A stretch of DNA of 64,000 bases from a phage. The stretch lies in NCBI GenBank assembly GCA_036930585.1, contig GCA_036930585.1_3066.1. One strand, 5' to 3'. Each line of letters begins with the position of its first letter. Within the stretch, counting starts at the first letter, position 1. The translations under genes were made by a program, and so were the position numbers. Below the pieces are notes generated by a model, which worked only from the letters and a program-made list of their open reading frames with translations, made no database searches and was not told the origin of the DNA. Positions 552 through 36,093 of this stretch are shown one piece after another.

Positions 552-1054
552 TTAAAAGTATTTTTTAAAACTCATCATAACTTTATCATCAACATCATTA
601 TCAATCTGTGCAACAAGATAAGATGACAGTTCTACTTCTTGTGGCGCTGATTGAACATTATCAGAATTAAGATATTCACGAATCCAAGGATATGGATGTT
701 TAACCGGAGCATCGGTAATTGGGCATGGAAGACCACACTGTTTCATACGAGATACAGTTAAGTAATCAATAAAGCTCCACATGCTATTTGTATTTAATCC
801 AGGAACATCGCCATCTTTAAATAAATGAACTGCCCAATCTTTTTCTTGGCGGTTAACTTCCATGAAAATATCAACTGCTTCTTGTTCGCACTCTTGAGCA
901 ATTTTAACCCATTCATCGCCATCAGTGCCAAGTTGAAGTTGACGAATAATATATTGGGTGCCTTTAAGGTGAAGCTGCTCATCACGAGCAATGAACTTCA
1001 TAATCTTGGCATTACCTTCCATGATTTCCATGTTCTTATGGAAGTTAAAGGTAC
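552..1054 (-). CDS. nrdB: Ribonucleotide reductase small subunit NrdB, exon 2
   Basis: MEIMEGNAKIMKFIARDE... C-terminal half of class Ia R2; joins exon 1 across intron to give ...FYVSFAC|TFNFHKNMEIMEG. Confidence 0.85.
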
Positions 1055-1648
1055 CGTTATGTTCGATTGAGCTCGCTAATTCTCAACCCGTTCTCTTATG
1101 AACTGCTACATATTACTATGCAGACCAGACTATATCACAATCCCAGAGGGATTCTCCCCATTTCGAGTCGCTTGACCCTACGTCCGAAGACTAGTCGTTG
1201 AACCTTGCTTTGCAATTGTCGCCGTGCCATCGTTTATATGTTGATGGTGATAAATCTTTCTTATCACAATATGGACAATTCAATTGAATTCTATTTGGAT
1301 TTAATTTACATCTGTCATTATGTTTTAGATAAAATCCAGGACATTTACCAATGTGACCGCAGAAATCACATGTGATTTCTTTTTGTGCAGGATGGGTCCC
1401 GTTCTTAACCATTTCTAATGTTTTTGCTGATGTTCTTTTCTTATGGTCTTCCATCAGAATCTTTAGGTATAGGTCCGTTAGCATCTATCCAAATTTTTCT
1501 ATAGTTCAATTGTGCATCCTCTTAAAAGTATAATCATATTATACTAATTAAAGGTGCAAGCAAAACCTTGGCTGCTAGTTTTCCTATAAAGGACTTTCCA
1601 GCAATTAAAGGAGTTTTCGATAAACGTTACCGTTTAAAGGCGCATTTT
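1055..1648 (-). mobile_element. Group I intron in nrdB (594 nt) carrying a truncated homing endonuclease ORF
   Basis: Exon 1 ends in U (1649), intron ends in G (1055); splice restores the Cys codon and reading frame of conserved NrdB. Confidence 0.8.
1191..1484 (-). pseudogene. Intron-encoded endonuclease remnant (I-TevIII-like, 97 aa, zinc-finger part only)
   Basis: ORF inside nrdB intron with CxxC...CxxC motifs but no HNH catalytic region. Confidence 0.55.
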
Positions 1649-2324
1649 ACGCAAAAGATACATAAAAACGAATAGCTTCCAATGCATTGATTACATGGAG
1701 GCAAAGATAAAGAGACTTCATTAGTGCTCGTTTAGCTTCGGCTTCTTGTTTAATAGCTCGATTTAAACGAAAATCAGCATCAGGAGATTCTTTAGCTAGT
1801 TCTACAAATTCTTTAGCGTTTTCCCATTCACGGGTTTTAATCAGAACGTCATCATAATAACGTCCAATGGATTCAGCACGTTTCATGATAGCTTCATCTA
1901 ATACAATCTCATCAAATACCTTAGCAGGGTCATTGAACAAGTTACGCATGATATGGGTATATGAACGACTGTGAATAGTTTCGCTAAAAGTCCATGTAGC
2001 AACCCATGTATCAAGGCTTGGATCTGAAAGCAATGGCATAAGTACAGCAGACGGCGCACGCCCCTGGATGGAGTCTAACAATGACTGGTATTTTAAGTTA
2101 TTGATAAATATAGATTTTTGATGTTCTGGGAGCTTGTTAAATTGTGCAGCATCCATCATTAAGTTTACTTCTTCAGGCCGCCAGAAAAATGATAAAGATC
2201 GCTCAATAAGTTCTTCAAATACCTTATGTCGTTGAATATCATAACGTGCAATTCCAAGACCTGAACCGAAGAACATAGGTTCTGTTAAAACATCAACTGG
2301 ATTTGTATTAAAAACTGTAGACAT
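1649..2324 (-). CDS. nrdB: Ribonucleotide reductase small subunit NrdB, exon 1
   Basis: MSTVFNTNPVDV...EAIRFYVSFA; in-frame TAA immediately after 5' splice site. Confidence 0.85.
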
Positions 2325-2376
2325 TAATTTTTCCTCTTAGTTAATAGTTGGTGACTCGTCCGTGAGTCAAATTATA

Positions 2377-4641
2377 TCATAATTTACACGCTGCACAATC
2401 GTCGGCTTTAGGAGTTTCTATTTCATAATCATCAGTACCAGAACCATCACGGGTATTATGATAATAGAAATTTTTAATGCCATAATACCATCCGTATAAC
2501 ATGTCATCAATCATTATTGACATTGGAACCTTTCCTTTTGGAAAAATCTGCGGGTCATAGTATGTATTCGCTGAAGCTGATTGACATACCCATTTCAGCA
2601 TAATAGCTACCTGCGTAAGATAAGGTTTATTACCTTTCTTAGCTAATTTCCACGTATAATCATAGAGGTCTATGTTATGCTCAATATTGGGCACGACTTG
2701 ATTAAAGGAACCCTCTTTTGATTCTTTAACAGAGACTGGTCCACGTGGAGGCTCGATACCGTTTGTACTGTTAGAAACTTGGGAAGATGACTCACATGGC
2801 ATAAGTGCTGATAATGTGCTATTACGGATGCCAAAGAGCTTAAGGTCTTCCCGCAGCGACGACCAGTCACAAACGTATTTTGGAGCTGCGATTTGGTCAA
2901 TCTTTTTATTGTACCAGTCGATAGGTAATTCGCCTCGAGACCAACGAGTGTCTGAATAATATTCGCAAGGTCCTTTTTCTTTGGCGAGCTTAATGGATGC
3001 TTTAATGAGCCCATACTGTAATCTCTCAAATAGTTCATGTGTTAAATCGTTAGCATCTTCGTAAGAAGCAAAGTTACTTGCCAGCCAAGCTGCATAGTTA
3101 GTAACACCTACACCGAGGTTTCGACGCTTTTTAGCTTTTAAAGCTTCTGGAACTGGATATCCTTGGTAATCCAACAGATTATCAAGAGCACGAACTTGAA
3201 CTTCTGCCAATTCATTAATTTTATCTTGGTCTTGCCAGTCAAAATTATCTAGTACGAATGCAGAGAGAGTACACAATCCAATTTCAGCATCAGGACTATT
3301 CACATCATTTGTTGGAATAGCAATTTCACAGCACAAGTTACTCTGGCGAATAGGTGCCTTTTCACGAATAAACGGAGTATAGTTATTCGTATTATCAATG
3401 AACTGCACATAAATCCTTGCCGTTCCTGAACGTTCAGTCATGAGCAATTCAAATAGTTCACGGGCTTTAATACGCTTTTTGCGAATATTAGGGTCTTTTT
3501 CTGCTGCTTCGTATAATTCACGGAAACGGTCTTGGTCTTTAAAATAAGAATAATAAAGCTCTCCACCCATTTCATGCGGACTGAACAAAGTAATGTAATC
3601 ATTCTTTCCGAATCGTTCCATCATTAGGTCATTCAGTTGAACGCCATAATCCATATGACGGATACGGTTTTCTTCTACGCCTTTGTTATTTTTCAAAACG
3701 AGAAGATTTTCAACTTCCAAATGCCAAATAGGATAATAAGCAGTAGCAGCGCCGCCACGAATTCCACCCTGTGAGCATGATTTAACAGCAGTCTGAAAAT
3801 GTTTCCAAAAAGGAATAACACCAGTATGGCGTACTTCACCTGTGCCAATCTTAGAACCTTCAGCACGAATCATACCAACGTTAATACCAATTCCAGCGCG
3901 TTTAGAGATATATTCAACAATTGAAGCAGAAGCCTTATTGATAGACTTCAGTGAATCGCCTGCCTCAATAACAACACATGAACTAAACTGCCGAGTTGGA
4001 GTACGGCAACCAGCCATAATAGGAGTTGGTAATGAAATCTGTCGAGTAGATACCGCTTCATAAAAACGGATAACATGTTTTAATCTATCAACAGGTTCAT
4101 CTTGATGCAATGCCATTCCAATAGTCATAAATGCAAACTGTGGAGTTTCATAAATTTGACCAGTGGTTTTATCTTTAACTAGATATTTTTCTTTTAATTG
4201 CATCGCCCCGGAATAAGTAAATTCCATATCCCGCTCGTGCTTAATTTTTGATTCTAAAAATGTAATTTCTTCTGCTGAATATTTTGACAATAATTCAGGG
4301 TCATATTTACCTTCATTTACACAGTAAGAAATATGGTCAATAAATGAACGTGGTTCATACTGCCCATAAACATGCTTACGAAGAGCAAACATTAAACAGC
4401 GTGCAGCTACATATTGATAATCAGGCTCTTCAACCGAAATAGAATTCGCAGCGGCCTTAATGACAATAGTCTGAATGTCATCAGTTGTCATTCCATCACG
4501 GAGATATGATTTAATATTTTCATATAATTCATAAGGATCTACTGATGTTCCCTCAGATGCCCAAGATAAAACTTTAATAATTTTTTGCGGGTCAAAGCTC
4601 TGAGAAACACCACTACTTTTGATAACATTAATTAATTGCAT
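2377..4641 (-). CDS. nrdA: Ribonucleotide reductase large subunit NrdA (754 aa)
   Basis: 754-aa ORF with class Ia R1 features (C-terminal CxxC, active-site region); length matches T4 NrdA. Confidence 0.95.
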   Translation of the reverse strand: MQLINVIKSSGVSQSFDPQKIIKVLSWASEGTSVDPYELYENIKSYLRDGMTTDDIQTIVIKAAANSISVEEPDYQYVAARCLMFALRKHVYGQYEPRSFIDHISYCVNEGKYDPELLSKYSAEEITFLESKIKHERDMEFTYSGAMQLKEKYLVKDKTTGQIYETPQFAFMTIGMALHQDEPVDRLKHVIRFYEAVSTRQISLPTPIMAGCRTPTRQFSSCVVIEAGDSLKSINKASASIVEYISKRAGIGINVGMIRAEGSKIGTGEVRHTGVIPFWKHFQTAVKSCSQGGIRGGAATAYYPIWHLEVENLLVLKNNKGVEENRIRHMDYGVQLNDLMMERFGKNDYITLFSPHEMGGELYYSYFKDQDRFRELYEAAEKDPNIRKKRIKARELFELLMTERSGTARIYVQFIDNTNNYTPFIREKAPIRQSNLCCEIAIPTNDVNSPDAEIGLCTLSAFVLDNFDWQDQDKINELAEVQVRALDNLLDYQGYPVPEALKAKKRRNLGVGVTNYAAWLASNFASYEDANDLTHELFERLQYGLIKASIKLAKEKGPCEYYSDTRWSRGELPIDWYNKKIDQIAAPKYVCDWSSLREDLKLFGIRNSTLSALMPCESSSQVSNSTNGIEPPRGPVSVKESKEGSFNQVVPNIEHNIDLYDYTWKLAKKGNKPYLTQVAIMLKWVCQSASANTYYDPQIFPKGKVPMSIMIDDMLYGWYYGIKNFYYHNTRDGSGTDDYEIETPKADDCAACKL

Positions 4642-4775
4642 AAGTCCTCAACTTGAAAATCGTCTTTAAACAATCGGTTAACTATATGAGCTATTATATC
4701 ACCATGACACGGCTTTGGTTTACATGTGCATCCTAGCCTCATTCCACGTAAAGGCTCTAAATGTGCTTTAGTTAT

Positions 4776-4958
4776 TTATCCGGATTTAATTCGACGTATA
4801 AAATCTTTTTTGAATAATTCAATGGCAGCCTCCCGGCTGCCAGCATCTTTACCGACGTAATTTCCCCAAAATGTACCACGGTGAATATTAACATCAAAGT
4901 CGGATTTATATTTATTCACTACCTGGCATAGACGGCCCGCGCGGTGATAATTCGTCAT
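4776..4958 (-). CDS. Hypothetical small protein (DUF4326-like core [12 protein letters not shown])
   Basis: 60-aa ORF overlapping the next ORF by 47 nt in another frame. Confidence 0.45.
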
Positions 4959-5198: not shown

Positions 5199-5510
5199 TT
5201 ACACCGCCATTTTTCCTTTCAAGACGCCGTGGGACTGATAATCTTTGAGAACGAAATCTTTAGGCCTGAGTTTAAGAATGTATTCCAATTGTTCTTTAGT
5301 AGAAAGATAGCGGAATTTATAAGGCAATCCGCCTATTACCAGTTCACAAAGCTCTTTAGGTTCACGACGCAAAATTTCTTTACATTGTTCTACGTGATTC
5401 ATATAGATGTGAGTATTACCACCGGAAAATATCAAATCTCCCGGAATAAGATTACACATCTTAGCTACAATATGAACTAACGTAGCATATGATGCAATAT
5501 TAAATGGAAG
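5199..5510 (-). CDS. td: Thymidylate synthase, exon 2
   Basis: LPFNIASYATLVHIVAKMCNL...GGNTHIYMNHVEQ, C-terminal part of ThyA-type TS. Confidence 0.9.
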   Translation of the reverse strand, partial: LPFNIASYATLVHIVAKMCNLIPGDLIFSGGNTHIYMNHVEQCKEILRREPKELCELVIGGLPYKFRYLSTKEQLEYILKLRPKDFVLKDYQSHGVLKGKMAV

Positions 5511-5830
5511 CATTATGTTCAGATAAGGTCGTTAATCTTACCCCGGAATTATATCCAGCTGCATGTCACCATGCAGATCAGACTATATCTTCAACTTGTT
5601 AAAGCAAGTTGTCTATCGTTTCGAGTCACTTGACCCTACTCCCCAAAGGGATAGTCGTTAGGCATTTATGTAGAACCAATTCCATTTATCAGATTTTACA
5701 CGGTAAGTAACTAATCCTGATGAAATTATTAAAGGGTAGTCCTACAATTTAGCACGGGATTGTCTACTAGAGAGGTCCCCCGTTTAGATAGATTACAAGT
5801 ATAAGTCACCTTATACCTAGGCCTCAATTA
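5511..5830 (-). mobile_element. td group I intron, ORF-less (320 nt)
   Basis: Intron starts UAAUUGAGGCC after exon ...UUGGGU and ends ...ACAUAAUG; only the last ~23 codons of an I-TevI-like ORF (..GLVTYRVKSDKWNWFYINA*) remain. Confidence 0.85.
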
Positions 5831-6379
5831 ACCCAAGAAAACATCTACACTGCGTTGATACCATTGTAAATCAAGATAACCATTACGCACATTAAACTGA
5901 TAGAACATATGACAAGGTGGTAATGCCATATATTTAAGTTCAGCTGGATTCCACGCAGAAACAATTTGACGCCTATCACTTGGTAGTTTTTTAATACGAT
6001 CAATAACTTCTATAATTTGGTCTACACCGCCAAAATCGCGCCACTGTTTTCCATAAATTGGGCCAAGTTCACCACTATGGTATCCTAAATCTTTTGCCTG
6101 ATTTTCGTAATTTTCATCCCAAACTGTTTTGCCTTGGATTAACGAATCATGCTGAATTAATCGTAAATCATTGACATTTGTGCTTCCTGATAAAAACCAA
6201 AGTAGCTCAGCAATGCAAGCTTTCCAGGCGAGCTTCTTAGTTGTTACCGCAGGAAAACCTTTAGTTAAATCCCAGCGTAATTTAGTACCGAATAAAGCAA
6301 TTGTTCCTGTGCCTGTTCGGTCATCGGTTTCATAGCCATTTTCAAAAATGTCTTTAATTAAATCTTGGTATTGTTTCAT
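5831..6379 (-). CDS. td: Thymidylate synthase, exon 1
   Basis: MKQYQDLIKDIFENGYETDDRTGTGT... 183 codons; exons 1+2 give 286 aa. Confidence 0.9.
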
Positions 6380-6424: not shown

Positions 6425-6772
6425 TCAATACGGTTTAGCATCAAATTTTCTCTCAATTTCAGGTGTGAAATATAATTCTTTACCACGTTTGGAAAAGCGA
6501 CCAATAATATGATAATTATTCTCATCAAACATGATATTACCAATATCCATAGCTTTCAACCAAATATCGATATTTCTATCCAGCTTTATGTCAAAATTCC
6601 AATACGGAGAACTATTACCGAAAATACTGCAAGCGGATTCAGTGAAACAACTGCTATAAATCTTGTCTTTAGGAACTACTAATTGATAGACACCTTTAAT
6701 AAACTGAGGACCCTGCCACTTTGGCTGTTTCGTGTCTTTTTCTAATAGAATAGGGTAATAATTAAAATTCAT
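6425..6772 (-). CDS. Hypothetical protein (115 aa) inserted between frd and td
   Basis: Intact ORF filling a ~410-bp gap between frd stop and td start; no recognisable motif. Confidence 0.5.
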   Translation of the reverse strand: MNFNYYPILLEKDTKQPKWQGPQFIKGVYQLVVPKDKIYSSCFTESACSIFGNSSPYWNFDIKLDRNIDIWLKAMDIGNIMFDENNYHIIGRFSKRGKELYFTPEIERKFDAKPY

Positions 6773-20790: not shown

Positions 20791-21591
20791 ATGGCAGTAG
20801 TTGGTGTTCCTGGTTGGATTGGAAGTTCAGCCGCAAATGAAACAGGACAGCGCTGGATGAGTCAAGCGGCTGGTCAATTAAGATTGGGTGTTCCTTGCTG
20901 GATGAGTCAATTTGCAGGTCGCTCACGAGAAATTATTCACACGCTTGGAGCAGACCATAACTTCAATGGTCAATGGTTCCGAGATAGATGTTTTGAGGCA
21001 GGTAGTGCACCTATAGTGTTTAATATTACCGGAAATTTGGTATCATATTCTAGAGACGTTCCTTTATTCTTCATGTATGGAGATACACCTAATGAATATG
21101 TTCAGTTGAATATTGGTGGCGGCGTCCATATGTGGGGTAGAGGTGGACAAGGTGGATGGACCCATTCCGGCGGAAATGGTAATGGTCAACAAGGTGGTCA
21201 TTGTATTCAAAATGACATCGGTGGACGATTAAGAATTAATAACGGTGGAGTAATTTGTGGTGGAGGTGGAGGTGGAGGTGGTATCGCTTATCGTCCTCAC
21301 TCTGGTGCAAATTGGCAAGATATTGGTGGTGGTGGAGGAAGACCATTTGGCCCAGGAGGAGGCGGAGGTTATTCCGGCGGCGCAGCTTCTTATGATGGCC
21401 CAGGAGGTGGTTACCAATACGGAAATGCTCACTCTGGCCAGGGTGGTGGTGCCGGAGGAAATGGACAAAATGCCTGGTCTGATGGTGGTAAAGTTCTAAA
21501 AGTTGGAGCTGGTGGCGCTGCCGGATATGCTGTTATAGGATCAGCTCCAACATGGCAAAATGTTGGAGTAATATATGGTCCAAGAGTATAA
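20791..21591 (+). CDS. 38: Receptor-recognising adhesin gp38 (T2-type, glycine-rich motifs)
   Basis: 266 aa; [44 protein letters not shown]... with poly-Gly blocks. Confidence 0.85.
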
Positions 21592-33231: not shown

Positions 33232-33763
33232 TACTGGCTCATCCATTCTTTACGAAGGTCAGCATTATCTCCCATGAGCATTTCAAAAAGTTCTTTCCAA
33301 TTCTCAGGAAGTTTAACAACATCATATACTGGATTTTGAATCATCTCACGATATTCAGATTTTTCCAAAGAGCCAAGTCCTTTAATATAACGGATGCTAT
33401 GTTTAGGTAGAGCATCTTTGGCACTCTCATATTCAGCGACTGTATAAAACCATTCTTGTTTTTTACCGACCTGAGCGATGATTACAGGAGTTTTGACGAA
33501 GCGAATTCTTCCTTGTTCAAACAGTTCTGGCCAATTACTAAAAAATCCGAGCAGAGAAGGATAAATAGAACCTAATCCAATAATCTCTTAATTATGAGGT
33601 ATTTCTATAGATAGCCCGAAGGCTATCCATCGTGATCTGCGTCTGTCATAATAGCGACATTCGCATAGTTCATTGAAGAGGATTTAATAGAACGACGAAC
33701 ATTGTTCTGCAATTTATATTTTTTCATATCAACGCTAGAAGAATCAATTTTTACAAATTTCAT
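33231..33763 (-). CDS. 60: Topoisomerase II subunit gp60, with 50-nt translational bypass
   Basis: Codons 1-46 (MKFVKIDSS...TDADHDG) end at GGA 33628..33626 followed by TAG; translation resumes at UUA 33575..33573 (LGSIYPSLLGFF...) to stop 33233..33231. Confidence 0.85.
33576..33625 (-). promoter_or_regulatory. Gene 60 coding gap (bypass element): take-off GGA, stop UAG, UUCG-loop hairpin, landing GGA
   Basis: GGA UAG CCUUCGGGCUA UCUAUAGAAAUACCUCAUAAUUAAGAGAUUAUUGGA UUA read directly from the minus strand. Confidence 0.85.
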
Positions 33764-34562
33764 TATACACCTCATAGAACTTTTCATCAGGAATCCAACC
33801 GCGTTTAAATTCATTAAATGCTCGGCCGAATAATTTTGAATTCACAGTTATATTATTAACTGATTTCCATTTAGCAACTCCCGTTCGTTTATAATGATCG
33901 GGGTCATATTTCGTGACGTACCATTCATATAAATTTGGTATTAATTTTACAGCCTCTGGATTTGTCGCTGATTTATTATACCATGGTTTCGCTTTTTCAA
34001 GTTCAGCTGCTTTTGCAGTAGCAGCAACAGTATTTCCAATACCAACTAATTTTTCAGCTTTAATGCGTGGGTCATTAACATGAAGACGAAAAACTTCGCC
34101 TTTTTCATTTTTAAAGCATGTCATGCCTTTAATTCCAGGAAGCTTAACACCTTTATTAACGCCGCACCATTCCTTTGGGTTAAATGATCCTTTAATTAAT
34201 AAGGCGCATTTACCCGATTTAATACTTCTCATTAAAACTTTATTTTTCATAAAGTTTTTTGACCATTCAGATACTGCTCTTTGATGGTAAATTCTAGCAA
34301 TTTCATATAATTTACTAGAACGTAAATATTTTTCAGTGTTTAACATTCTATTCATCGCATATGCCATTTCACGATTACGATGAATTTTATATAGTAGAAA
34401 ATGTGCTAAAAAGTGTTCACGAAAAGTCAGTTTCACCAAATTTTCTTTATCATCAGAACCTCCCATTGATCTTGGAAGGATATGATGAATTTCACCCTTA
34501 AATTTAGAAACGCGGGTTTTACCCCGCGCTATTAAGTCATTATAGATTTTTTCGTAATTCAC
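33744..34562 (-). CDS. mobA: HNH homing endonuclease MobA (272-aa ORF; start uncertain)
   Basis: Free-standing ORF between 39 and 60, overlapping both; HNH-like HH...N...H region (EIHHILPRSMGGSDDKENLVKLTFREHFLAH). Confidence 0.7.
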   Translation of the reverse strand: MNYEKIYNDLIARGKTRVSKFKGEIHHILPRSMGGSDDKENLVKLTFREHFLAHFLLYKIHRNREMAYAMNRMLNTEKYLRSSKLYEIARIYHQRAVSEWSKNFMKNKVLMRSIKSGKCALLIKGSFNPKEWCGVNKGVKLPGIKGMTCFKNEKGEVFRLHVNDPRIKAEKLVGIGNTVAATAKAAELEKAKPWYNKSATNPEAVKLIPNLYEWYVTKYDPDHYKRTGVAKWKSVNNITVNSKLFGRAFNEFKRGWIPDEKFYEVYNEICKN

Positions 34563-36093
34563 CTACTGTTATCCATTTACCATTAATCTGTACTTCATCA
34601 TTTTCATTTACGATAATTGTATCGCCATTTAGTTCGAAAGTAAACCACTCGCCATCTTCTTTTTCTTCAAACGCCTTTTCACCGAGAACTAATCCAGTGA
34701 TTGCGCAAATATCAAACAATTCTTTGTTTTTAAGCATATCAGCATATGACATACCCCAACTGTTGAGAACTTTACCGCGCAATGGATAACCACCATGAAG
34801 TTCTTTATCACGAACATCAATAAGATATCCGATAGCAGAATCACCCTCAGTCAAGAAAAGAGTAGTGTCAGCATCTTTACCGCAAAGATTCGCTTTAATG
34901 TGTTTATGAACCTTAGCTTTAGAAGCCTTTTTAGCTGCTTTAGTTTCTGCTGCCTTTTCTGCCGCCAATTTACGAGCCAAAGCAGCTTCAATAATCGGCA
35001 TTAGAATTGCTTCATTATTTAGAATAGCACGTGAAATCTTTTTAGCATCAAGTTGAATATGACTACGGATTTCACCAAATGGAGAAGTCAAACGCTCTTT
35101 AGTTTGAGAATCAAATCGCATGTTTTTCATATCACGGACAAACATAACGATAGTCAAACATTCTTTAACGCGTGCTTTAGTCACATCAATTTTGAACTTA
35201 CGTTTGATTTGTGGAATAAGGTCTTCACAAATATCATCCATAACACAGTCAATGTGATGGCCACCATTCTTAGTGTGAATGTTATTCACATAAGTTAATT
35301 GACGAAAACCATCCGGTGAACGACCAACCGCAATAGAGCAATTTTCTTGTTCTTGAACGATAGCATGTTCATCATATTGGCGTGCATATTTCTTAAAATT
35401 GCCCTGAACCTTTTTACCATTAAAGGTAAATTGAATATCAGGATAAACTACTGCAAGTGTCTGGAGACGATCTAGTGTAATGTCAAGATAAACTTGGGAC
35501 AGCTCATTAGTTTCAAATGACATAAAATCAGGAATGAAAGTAACACGAGTTCCTTTCCATTTTCCAGGAATAGTTTCCCATGATTTATTTTCCATGCCAT
35601 TTGAACAACGAACTACAATATTATTTTGACCATCACCAGTTTCACCGACAAACATCACAGAAAAAATGTTTGTCAAACTAGAACCAACACCATTCATACC
35701 ACCGGTGACACGTTCTTTATCATCACCAAAGTTACCACCTGCTTTTGGAATAGTCCAGGCAGCAACAGGACCAGGAATTTCTTCACCAGTAGGTGTTTTG
35801 ACCATCGCTTGTGGAATACCGCGACCGTTATCTTCAACTGTTACTTGATTGTTTTTAATAGTAACATTAATTTTATTTGCGAATTTAAACTTAGTACGAA
35901 TACCTTCATCTACTGAGTTATCGATAATTTCATCAATAAGCTTAACAAGACCAGGTACATACTGAACACTTTCCCATTTACCAAACAGAAAGCGCTCATG
36001 CATTTCATTAGCAGAAGAGCCAATATACATGCCGCTACGCTTTTTGATATGTTCAATATCGCTCAGAATTTTAATTTCATTCTTAATCATCAC
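34540..36093 (-). CDS. 39: DNA topoisomerase II large subunit gp39 (ATPase)
   Basis: 517-aa ORF with GHKL ATPase motifs (IDNSVDE, GxxGxG). Confidence 0.95.
   Translation of the reverse strand: MMIKNEIKILSDIEHIKKRSGMYIGSSANEMHERFLFGKWESVQYVPGLVKLIDEIIDNSVDEGIRTKFKFANKINVTIKNNQVTVEDNGRGIPQAMVKTPTGEEIPGPVAAWTIPKAGGNFGDDKERVTGGMNGVGSSLTNIFSVMFVGETGDGQNNIVVRCSNGMENKSWETIPGKWKGTRVTFIPDFMSFETNELSQVYLDITLDRLQTLAVVYPDIQFTFNGKKVQGNFKKYARQYDEHAIVQEQENCSIAVGRSPDGFRQLTYVNNIHTKNGGHHIDCVMDDICEDLIPQIKRKFKIDVTKARVKECLTIVMFVRDMKNMRFDSQTKERLTSPFGEIRSHIQLDAKKISRAILNNEAILMPIIEAALARKLAAEKAAETKAAKKASKAKVHKHIKANLCGKDADTTLFLTEGDSAIGYLIDVRDKELHGGYPLRGKVLNSWGMSYADMLKNKELFDICAITGLVLGEKAFEEKEDGEWFTFELNGDTIIVNENDEVQINGKWITVGELRKNL

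Follow-up and report, generated by a model that had tools for sequence, protein, structure and literature searches.

The segment at 5511..5830 of the window (the whole 64-kb stretch of phage DNA that we analyzed) is, judging from its sequence, the T-even td group I intron, which here has degenerated naturally and lost its endonuclease. We consider it highly probable that a TuIa-type td intron arrived at this locus by homing, suffered an illegitimate deletion of 696 bp, and has been retained as a non-autonomous ribozyme. The window comes from a T4-like (Tequatrovirus) genome, and in it nrdB, nrdA, td, and frd all lie on the minus strand. The td locus has the following features:

5831..6379, minus strand: td exon 1 (thymidylate synthase), 183 codons, ending ...FLG (ORF list; alignment to T4, RB3, and U115 td)
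5511..5830, minus strand: ORF-less td group I intron, 320 nt, phase 0, between codons 183 and 184
5199..5510, minus strand: td exon 2, 103 codons plus stop (ORF list, alignment, and spliced protein)
5816..5822, minus strand: internal guide sequence (IGS), intron nt 9 to 15, GGCCUAGG type, 7 of 7 pairs
5726..5727, minus strand: deletion junction, CCCTTTAAT[AA]TTTCATC (alignments with T4, RB3, and TuIa; same junction elsewhere)
5658..5726, minus strand: I-TevI remnant, 22 sense codons (ISSGLVTYRVKSDKWNWFYINA*) plus TAA, without a start codon

Exon 1 ends in ...TTCTTGGGT at 5831, the intron begins with TAATTGAGG (5830) and closes with ...ACATAATG (5511), and exon 2 starts with CTTCCATTT at 5510 (CTTCCATTTAAT in a longer reading). 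The insertion lies at the canonical td site, between …CTTGGGT and CTxCCxTTTAAT…, as in T4 and TuIa. Joining the exons yields a 286-aa protein that covers positions 1 to 266 of the 266 in Pfam PF00303 (317 bits). The intron matched Rfam RF00028 (Intron_gpI) on the minus strand at 70.3 bits (E = 8.1e-16), above the curated gathering score of 50, which places 5511..5830 in that family; the match covers the full model, positions 1 to 253 of 253. Compared with the TuIa, RB3, and T4 introns, the window intron shows 10 to 12 differences in 320 nt, and its core is ~96 to 97% identical to those of T4 and RB3 (alignment); this identity and the canonical site mark it as an orthologue of the T-even td intron. 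The initial annotation had recognized a 320-nt td group I intron here, with conserved 5′ and 3′ core sequences: its coordinates and length proved exact, and the strand is minus. In the public records that we examined, td is split into two "thymidylate synthase" CDSs with spurious small ORFs between them, and annotators should be warned that the gene is recorded in this way.

We mapped the deletion by alignment to the 1016-nt introns of RB3 and TuIa, and to T4 (NC_000866.4; 1017 nt between the same anchors). The window intron has one 696-nt gap relative to the 1016-nt td intron, placed in the P6a loop, in agreement with the proposal that the ORF body had been lost from the P6 loop; the comparison with the T4 td intron that had been recommended as a check thus defined both the 696-nt deletion and its AA junction. 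The junction reads CCCTTTAAT[AA]TTTCATCAGG, where AA is a 2-nt microhomology common to both flanks. On inspection, we rejected an AAAT (4-nt) junction and an in-register TTTAA-repeat junction, because the observed sequence fits only the 2-nt AA overlap. The 5′ breakpoint lies within an AATAAATA stretch, just upstream of the I-TevI hairpin, ribosome-binding site (RBS), and ATG; the late promoter and an overlapping I-TevI operator sit immediately upstream of the ORF (PMC2988022). The 3′ breakpoint falls at I-TevI codon 223/224, joining the truncated late-promoter region to codon 224. Missing are one half of the late promoter of I-TevI, its regulatory hairpin, operator, RBS, and start codon, and 223 of its 245 codons, while the 5′ half of the late-promoter region is kept up to the junction. 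One might speculate that self-cleavage at the I-TevI operator triggered the deletion, since this fits a 5′ breakpoint in the operator-overlapped part of the late-promoter region.

The remnant is 100% identical in protein to T4 I-TevI residues 224 to 245, and tblastn gave no other significant I-TevI match in the 64-kb window; neither the GIY-YIG catalytic domain nor the zinc-finger linker of I-TevI was found there. The initial annotation, which saw the last ~23 codons of I-TevI, was right that only the C-terminal end survives, but the exact count is 22 codons plus the stop. According to the ORF list, 5511..5830 contains neither an intact endonuclease ORF, the one finding that was to tell against that annotation, nor any endonuclease-like ORF of at least 20 aa. 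We rejected the remnant as a peptide-coding ORF, because its frame is interrupted by a TAG eight codons upstream and offers none of the start codons ATG, GTG, and TTG. Having no intact homing endonuclease with expression signals, the window intron is not a mobile (homing) intron; with no endonuclease in cis and no I-TevI gene found elsewhere in the window, homing cannot be initiated, and the 22-codon remnant leaves standing the earlier statement that the intron cannot home by itself.

To describe the ribozyme, we scored thirteen helices (P1, P2, P3, P4, P5, P6, P6a, P7, P7.1, P7.2, P8, P9, and P9.1) on an alignment of 16 alleles, including the splice-site U.G wobble of P1 and the P7 pseudoknot strand. 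All 74 pairs of P1 to P9.1 (74/74) are standard in the window and in every other allele, and a single-sequence MFE fold recovers P2, P3, P4, P5, P6, P6a, P7.1, P7.2, P8, P9, and P9.1. Variation is confined to two adjacent P1/IGS pairs (U-A exchanged with U.G), one further P1 pair (G.U/A-U), and one P6a pair (A-U/G.U); the remaining differences of the window intron from T4 lie in loops and junctions. P1 is formed by the IGS and exon CUUGGGU and has its U.G wobble (U(-1).G9) at the 5′ splice site, and the GA-to-AG difference of the IGS from T4 exchanges a U-A and a U.G pair with pairing kept. The intron terminates in ...AAUG, that is, with the final G at its 3′ end. In P6a, intron nt 85 to 94 pair with 153 to 162, and the 3′ strands of P6a and of P6 come from the last ~7 codons of the remnant. 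In the I-TevI ORF, the final 20 nt are known to contribute to P6a and P7, and splicing needs them (PMC3073962). Because the ORF's 3′ end forms these P6a/P6 strands, a viable deletion must halt before the ORF ends. Since all helices and the spliced Td ORF are intact, the 320-nt intron is very likely to be splicing competent, in line with the view of the initial annotation that splicing is retained. As td is dispensable on thyA+ hosts, viability of the phage is in itself no proof of splicing.

The initial annotation offered two origins for the deletion, a natural ORF-less variant or a laboratory deletion. A 100-nt probe centered on the deletion junction is covered without a break in 17 phage records. 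The 1251-nt td locus gave one unbroken match in U115, ESh30, L14, HP3, HP3.1, HP3.2, Elenatom, and Pinarejo, and likewise in SYGD1, MLP2, C2-3, 101112UKE3-1, PYps55T, UPWr_E2, and Shinka; 235Ecol030PP has a 319-nt version of the intron with the identical junction. Where the records state a source or country, these include chicken feces, Chile, Spanish wastewater, German raptor feces, Chinese dairy sewage, and Poland. No record is identical to the window, the best match over 25 kb being ~95.5%. With the same junction in 17 independently deposited records from several continents, the first of the two origins holds: the deletion is evidently natural, not laboratory-made. Short, 33-nt matches to the junction probe were seen in JK45, SP1, SEA1, and HMD-9; that in JK45 was rejected as a further variant, because it is the homologous P3-P5 core of the nrdD intron.

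A query with the T4 I-TevI ORF matched 216 records, in 187 of which it is full length (mostly at least 99% identical) and in ~29 partial; the window-type allele thus makes up ~8% of I-TevI-matching records (17/216), and each of the sampled ORF-less genomes has a single I-TevI-matching place. A spliced-junction probe matched ~700 records with an uninterrupted td, and intron-less td alleles are the majority in sequenced T4-like phages. The window-type allele is already present many times in public databases, and the kind of element is well known. A full-text literature search that did not reach the original survey of introns in T-even phages turned up no account of a natural td intron lacking its ORF, and the window intron has probably not been described before. 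The survey is that of Sandegren and Sjöberg from 2004; the td records AY262155-7 (U5, T6, and TuIa), which we take to belong to it, all have a full-length ORF.

The window allele is of TuIa type, not T4 type: it has the IGS variant CCTAGG, G at intron position 54, and A at position 94, as do the full-length introns of TuIa, TB004 (Tequatrovirus), F27, and AV110 (Mosigvirus). The TuIa-type markers are distributed over the IGS, the vicinity of P4, P6a, and the ORF remnant; the three variants within the remnant, having been inherited from an intact I-TevI gene, are synonymous in its frame. Full-length TuIa-type td introns (F27, L013; AV110, L014; TuIa, L004; TB004, L012) occur mainly in Mosigvirus genomes, and TuIa-type I-TevI is ~88% identical to that of T4 at the DNA level. 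TB004, a Tequatrovirus with a TuIa-type intron, indicates that the td intron has been transferred between genera.

Nine ORF-less loci (those of eight other phages plus the window) have introns of 319 to 320 nt with the same junction. All nine share the junction-linked TuIa markers at 94, 110, and 113, while at markers farther from the junction they fall into two recombinant subtypes: type A (window, U115, HP3, and SYGD1) is TuIa-like at 13, 14, 54, and 128, and type B (MLP2, C2-3, PYps55T, Shinka, and 235Ecol030PP) is T4/RB3-like at these positions. Among the ORF-less carriers, exon 1 differs from that of the window at up to 40 of 549 positions, the intron at 5 or fewer of 320, and exon 2 at 2 or fewer of 312, and two different small genes occupy the frd-td interval. 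Because the junction-linked markers are shared by all nine loci, the simplest reading is a single origin, in which a TuIa-type intron, brought into a Tequatrovirus by homing, underwent one deletion and the allele was then spread by recombination. In the window, the TuIa-type markers form one block:

5703..5879, minus strand: contiguous TuIa/Mosigvirus-type tract (marker tables)

Its markers are exon 1 positions -49 to -19 and intron positions 13, 14, 54, 94, 110, 113, and 128; the exon 1 part (type A) includes a TCA-to-AGT serine codon at -21..-19. The tract crosses the I-TevI cleavage site (-23/-25, about 5853-5855), I-TevI having a cleavage distance of 23 and 25 nt (PMC2988022), and we read it as a probable homing co-conversion tract.

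Other td alleles have degenerated by different routes. FL18 and G28 (Mosigvirus) have a 445-nt td intron (FL18, L015, 871..1315) with an independent deletion that is in frame and runs between two 9-nt CATTTTAAA repeats, each coding for RHFK; it leaves a 55-aa mini I-TevI ORF, in which 33 N-terminal codons are preserved along with the promoter, RBS, and start codon. This mini-ORF carries the annotation "homing endonuclease." The FL18/G28 and window alleles are alike in having a natural deletion in the I-TevI ORF, the same 22 C-terminal codons, and an intact ribozyme; they differ in that FL18/G28 retains the expression signals and was deleted between 9-nt repeats. The 22 codons shared by the window and FL18 may reflect an A/T-rich, TTTAA-like deletion hotspot, or selection for the sequence 3′ of the breakpoint. 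In ph0021 (L016, about 870..1270), a larger natural deletion via an 8-nt TGTGATGG microhomology fuses an ORF upstream of frd to the I-TevI C terminus (…ECDG/VIFDC…) and takes out frd, exon 1 of td, and the intron's 5′ half; ph0021 should be frd- and td-. Both the ph0021 and the FL18/G28 alleles evidently arose independently of the window-type deletion.

We propose that a TuIa-type mobile td intron entered a Tequatrovirus td gene via I-TevI-driven homing, which would have left the donor-type co-conversion tract in exon 1. A single illegitimate deletion of 696 bp, with 2 bp of microhomology, would then have occurred inside the dispensable P6a loop, sparing the I-TevI ORF's 3′ end, which also serves as the 3′ strands of P6a and P6. 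Once transcribed, the 320-nt RNA would fold and self-splice to give td mRNA, allowing Td to be made. Because the intron still separates the halves of the I-TevI homing site, the allele would, given the recognition mode of I-TevI (PMC2988022), be immune to I-TevI from co-infecting phages. It would persist by vertical descent and by general recombination, which is frequent between T4-like phages, and would be mobilized only in trans, if an I-TevI-positive co-infecting phage led to its being copied into an intron-less td. The defunct T4 nrdB intron, with its mobE-dependent trans-homing, provides a precedent (PMC2790892). The window allele is, in these terms, an unremarkable case of a well-known mobile intron that has decayed to a non-autonomous state.

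Selection could be added to this history. Mis-timed I-TevI translation is reported to lower td splicing and to cause a thymidine-dependent phenotype (PMC2988022), and loss of the ORF removes the conflict between I-TevI translation and intron folding (PMC2988022), so that ORF loss could be mildly advantageous. A fuller version, in which the short allele was favored because ribosome interference and the cost of the nuclease were gone while immunity to I-TevI was kept, is compatible with the main explanation, but we think it rather unlikely. The splicing defect, the wide distribution of the allele over mosaic backgrounds, and the independent recurrence in FL18/G28, with exactly the same 22 codons retained, argue for it; on the other hand, the allele accounts for just the ~8% of I-TevI-matching records noted above, 187 records keep a full-length ORF that is mostly at least 99% identical, and general recombination alone can explain the spread. 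It is similarly doubtful, in our view, that the short form is a successful "immunized, cost-free" td allele, arising again and again at a deletion hotspot rich in A/T and spreading among Tequatroviruses. The hotspot may consist of TTTAA-type motifs at the late promoter, codons 31 to 34, and codons 221 to 224, and the spread could be due to better td splicing, removal of the nuclease cost, or mobilization in trans by I-TevI-positive phages. If true, this would be the natural domestication of a parasitic intron at a time when targets without the intron are still plentiful.

On one view, group I introns had no ORF in their ancestral state (PMC3073962), which would allow the window intron to be an ancestral td intron never invaded by an endonuclease gene (a pre-mobile state). 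We find this very improbable. The 22 codons match the I-TevI C terminus perfectly in protein, and ~15 of them lie outside any helix needed by the ribozyme; their synonymous variants are those of the TuIa-type I-TevI gene in its intact form; and the late-promoter region of I-TevI survives in its 5′ half. On these remnants of ORF and promoter, we ruled out a pre-mobile intron.

Engineered td ΔORF or P6a-loop deletion introns are used in splicing studies, and P6a-loop deletions have long been made in vitro; a tdΔORF-like laboratory construct in an engineered T4 stock would thus be conceivable, yet it is extremely improbable as the source of the window allele. Engineered introns resemble it in having a deletion within the dispensable L6a loop and a ribozyme of ~300 nt. 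They are, however, T4-based, and a laboratory tdΔORF allele would occur in engineered T4 stocks only and have a T4-type intron, whereas the window intron has another junction, a TuIa-type allele, and an environmental origin. Nor is the window genome T4, given its best match of ~95.5% over 25 kb to any record. The 17 records that share the junction come from wastewater, bird and chicken feces, and dairy sewage, in Chile, Spain, Germany, China, and Poland among others, and the junction is found in two mosaic subtypes and two gene contexts. Collapse of a full-length intron by an assembly or sequencing artifact has next to no credibility, because 17 independently assembled records have the identical junction, which offers just a 2-nt microhomology and no long repeat to collapse.

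The td/I-TevI intron is a textbook model for intron homing. With the T4/TuIa td intron (subgroup IA2, I-TevI), the window intron has in common its gene, site, P1-P9.1 helices, and ~96 to 97% identity over the 320 shared nt; the T4/TuIa intron has in addition the 696 nt that comprise the late-promoter half, operator, hairpin, RBS, and I-TevI codons 1 to 223, and without them the window intron is not autonomously mobile. The T4 nrdB intron is also a T-even group I intron that has retained its ribozyme despite a natural internal deletion, of I-TevIII, and that persists with no homing activity of its own (PMC2790892). It differs in having a 97-aa truncated ORF and start signals left, as well as a neighboring mobE that mobilizes it in trans; in the window td intron, the ORF is almost wholly gone and there is no adjacent free-standing endonuclease.

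In the life cycle of homing endonucleases, which consists of invasion, fixation, degeneration, and loss (PMC2988022), the window allele represents the stage at which the endonuclease has degenerated and the intron is retained. It departs from that cycle in one respect: intron-less td is still the majority, and persistence of ~700 such alleles means that ORF loss did not simply follow population-wide fixation, as the classical cycle would have it. The ORF-less td intron reveals no new mechanism, but as a natural allele it is a field example of the degeneration stage and offers a test of the fitness or splicing cost of I-TevI.

A second group I intron lies in nrdB:

552..2324, minus strand: nrdB with a T4-type group I intron (interruption about 1035..1645)
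1191..1484, minus strand: truncated 97-aa I-TevIII in the nrdB intron, 3 aa differences from T4

The nrdB intron scored 35.1 bits in Rfam, under the gathering score of 50, so it was seen by a permissive scan and missed by the gathering scan. Only ~52 nt (2325..2376) separate the nrdA stop from the nrdB start, and the window lacks the stretch of ~700 bp in which T4 has nrdB.1 and mobE (139721-140419). With mobE absent, the nrdB intron is without the partner that mobilizes it in trans in T4; both introns in the window (td and nrdB) are "stranded," with no working endonuclease in cis or next door.

nrdA.1 (DUF4326; 4632..4958, minus strand) has an in-frame GAA-to-TAA change at codon 61 (4776..4778) and is a probable pseudogene; the gene is intact in T4, HP3, and MLP2. 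Between frd and td lies a 115-aa ORF (6425..6772, minus strand) that belongs to phrog_1928 and has no Pfam match. In T4, frd and td overlap, and other phages have a different, 207-bp DUF4858 ORF in this interval; such differing ORFs point to a variable insertion slot. A 240-aa mobA-like ORF (33744..34466, minus strand), which matches PHROG homing-endonuclease families (phrog_655, 1e-38), adjoins gene 39 (34540..36090), encoding a 516-aa split-type topoisomerase, and this suggests a T4-like gene 39/mobA/gene 60 arrangement. Finally, gp38 (20791..21591, plus strand) is a 266-aa T2/T6-type tail-fiber adhesin (PF05268 plus Gp38_N), not the T4-type chaperone.
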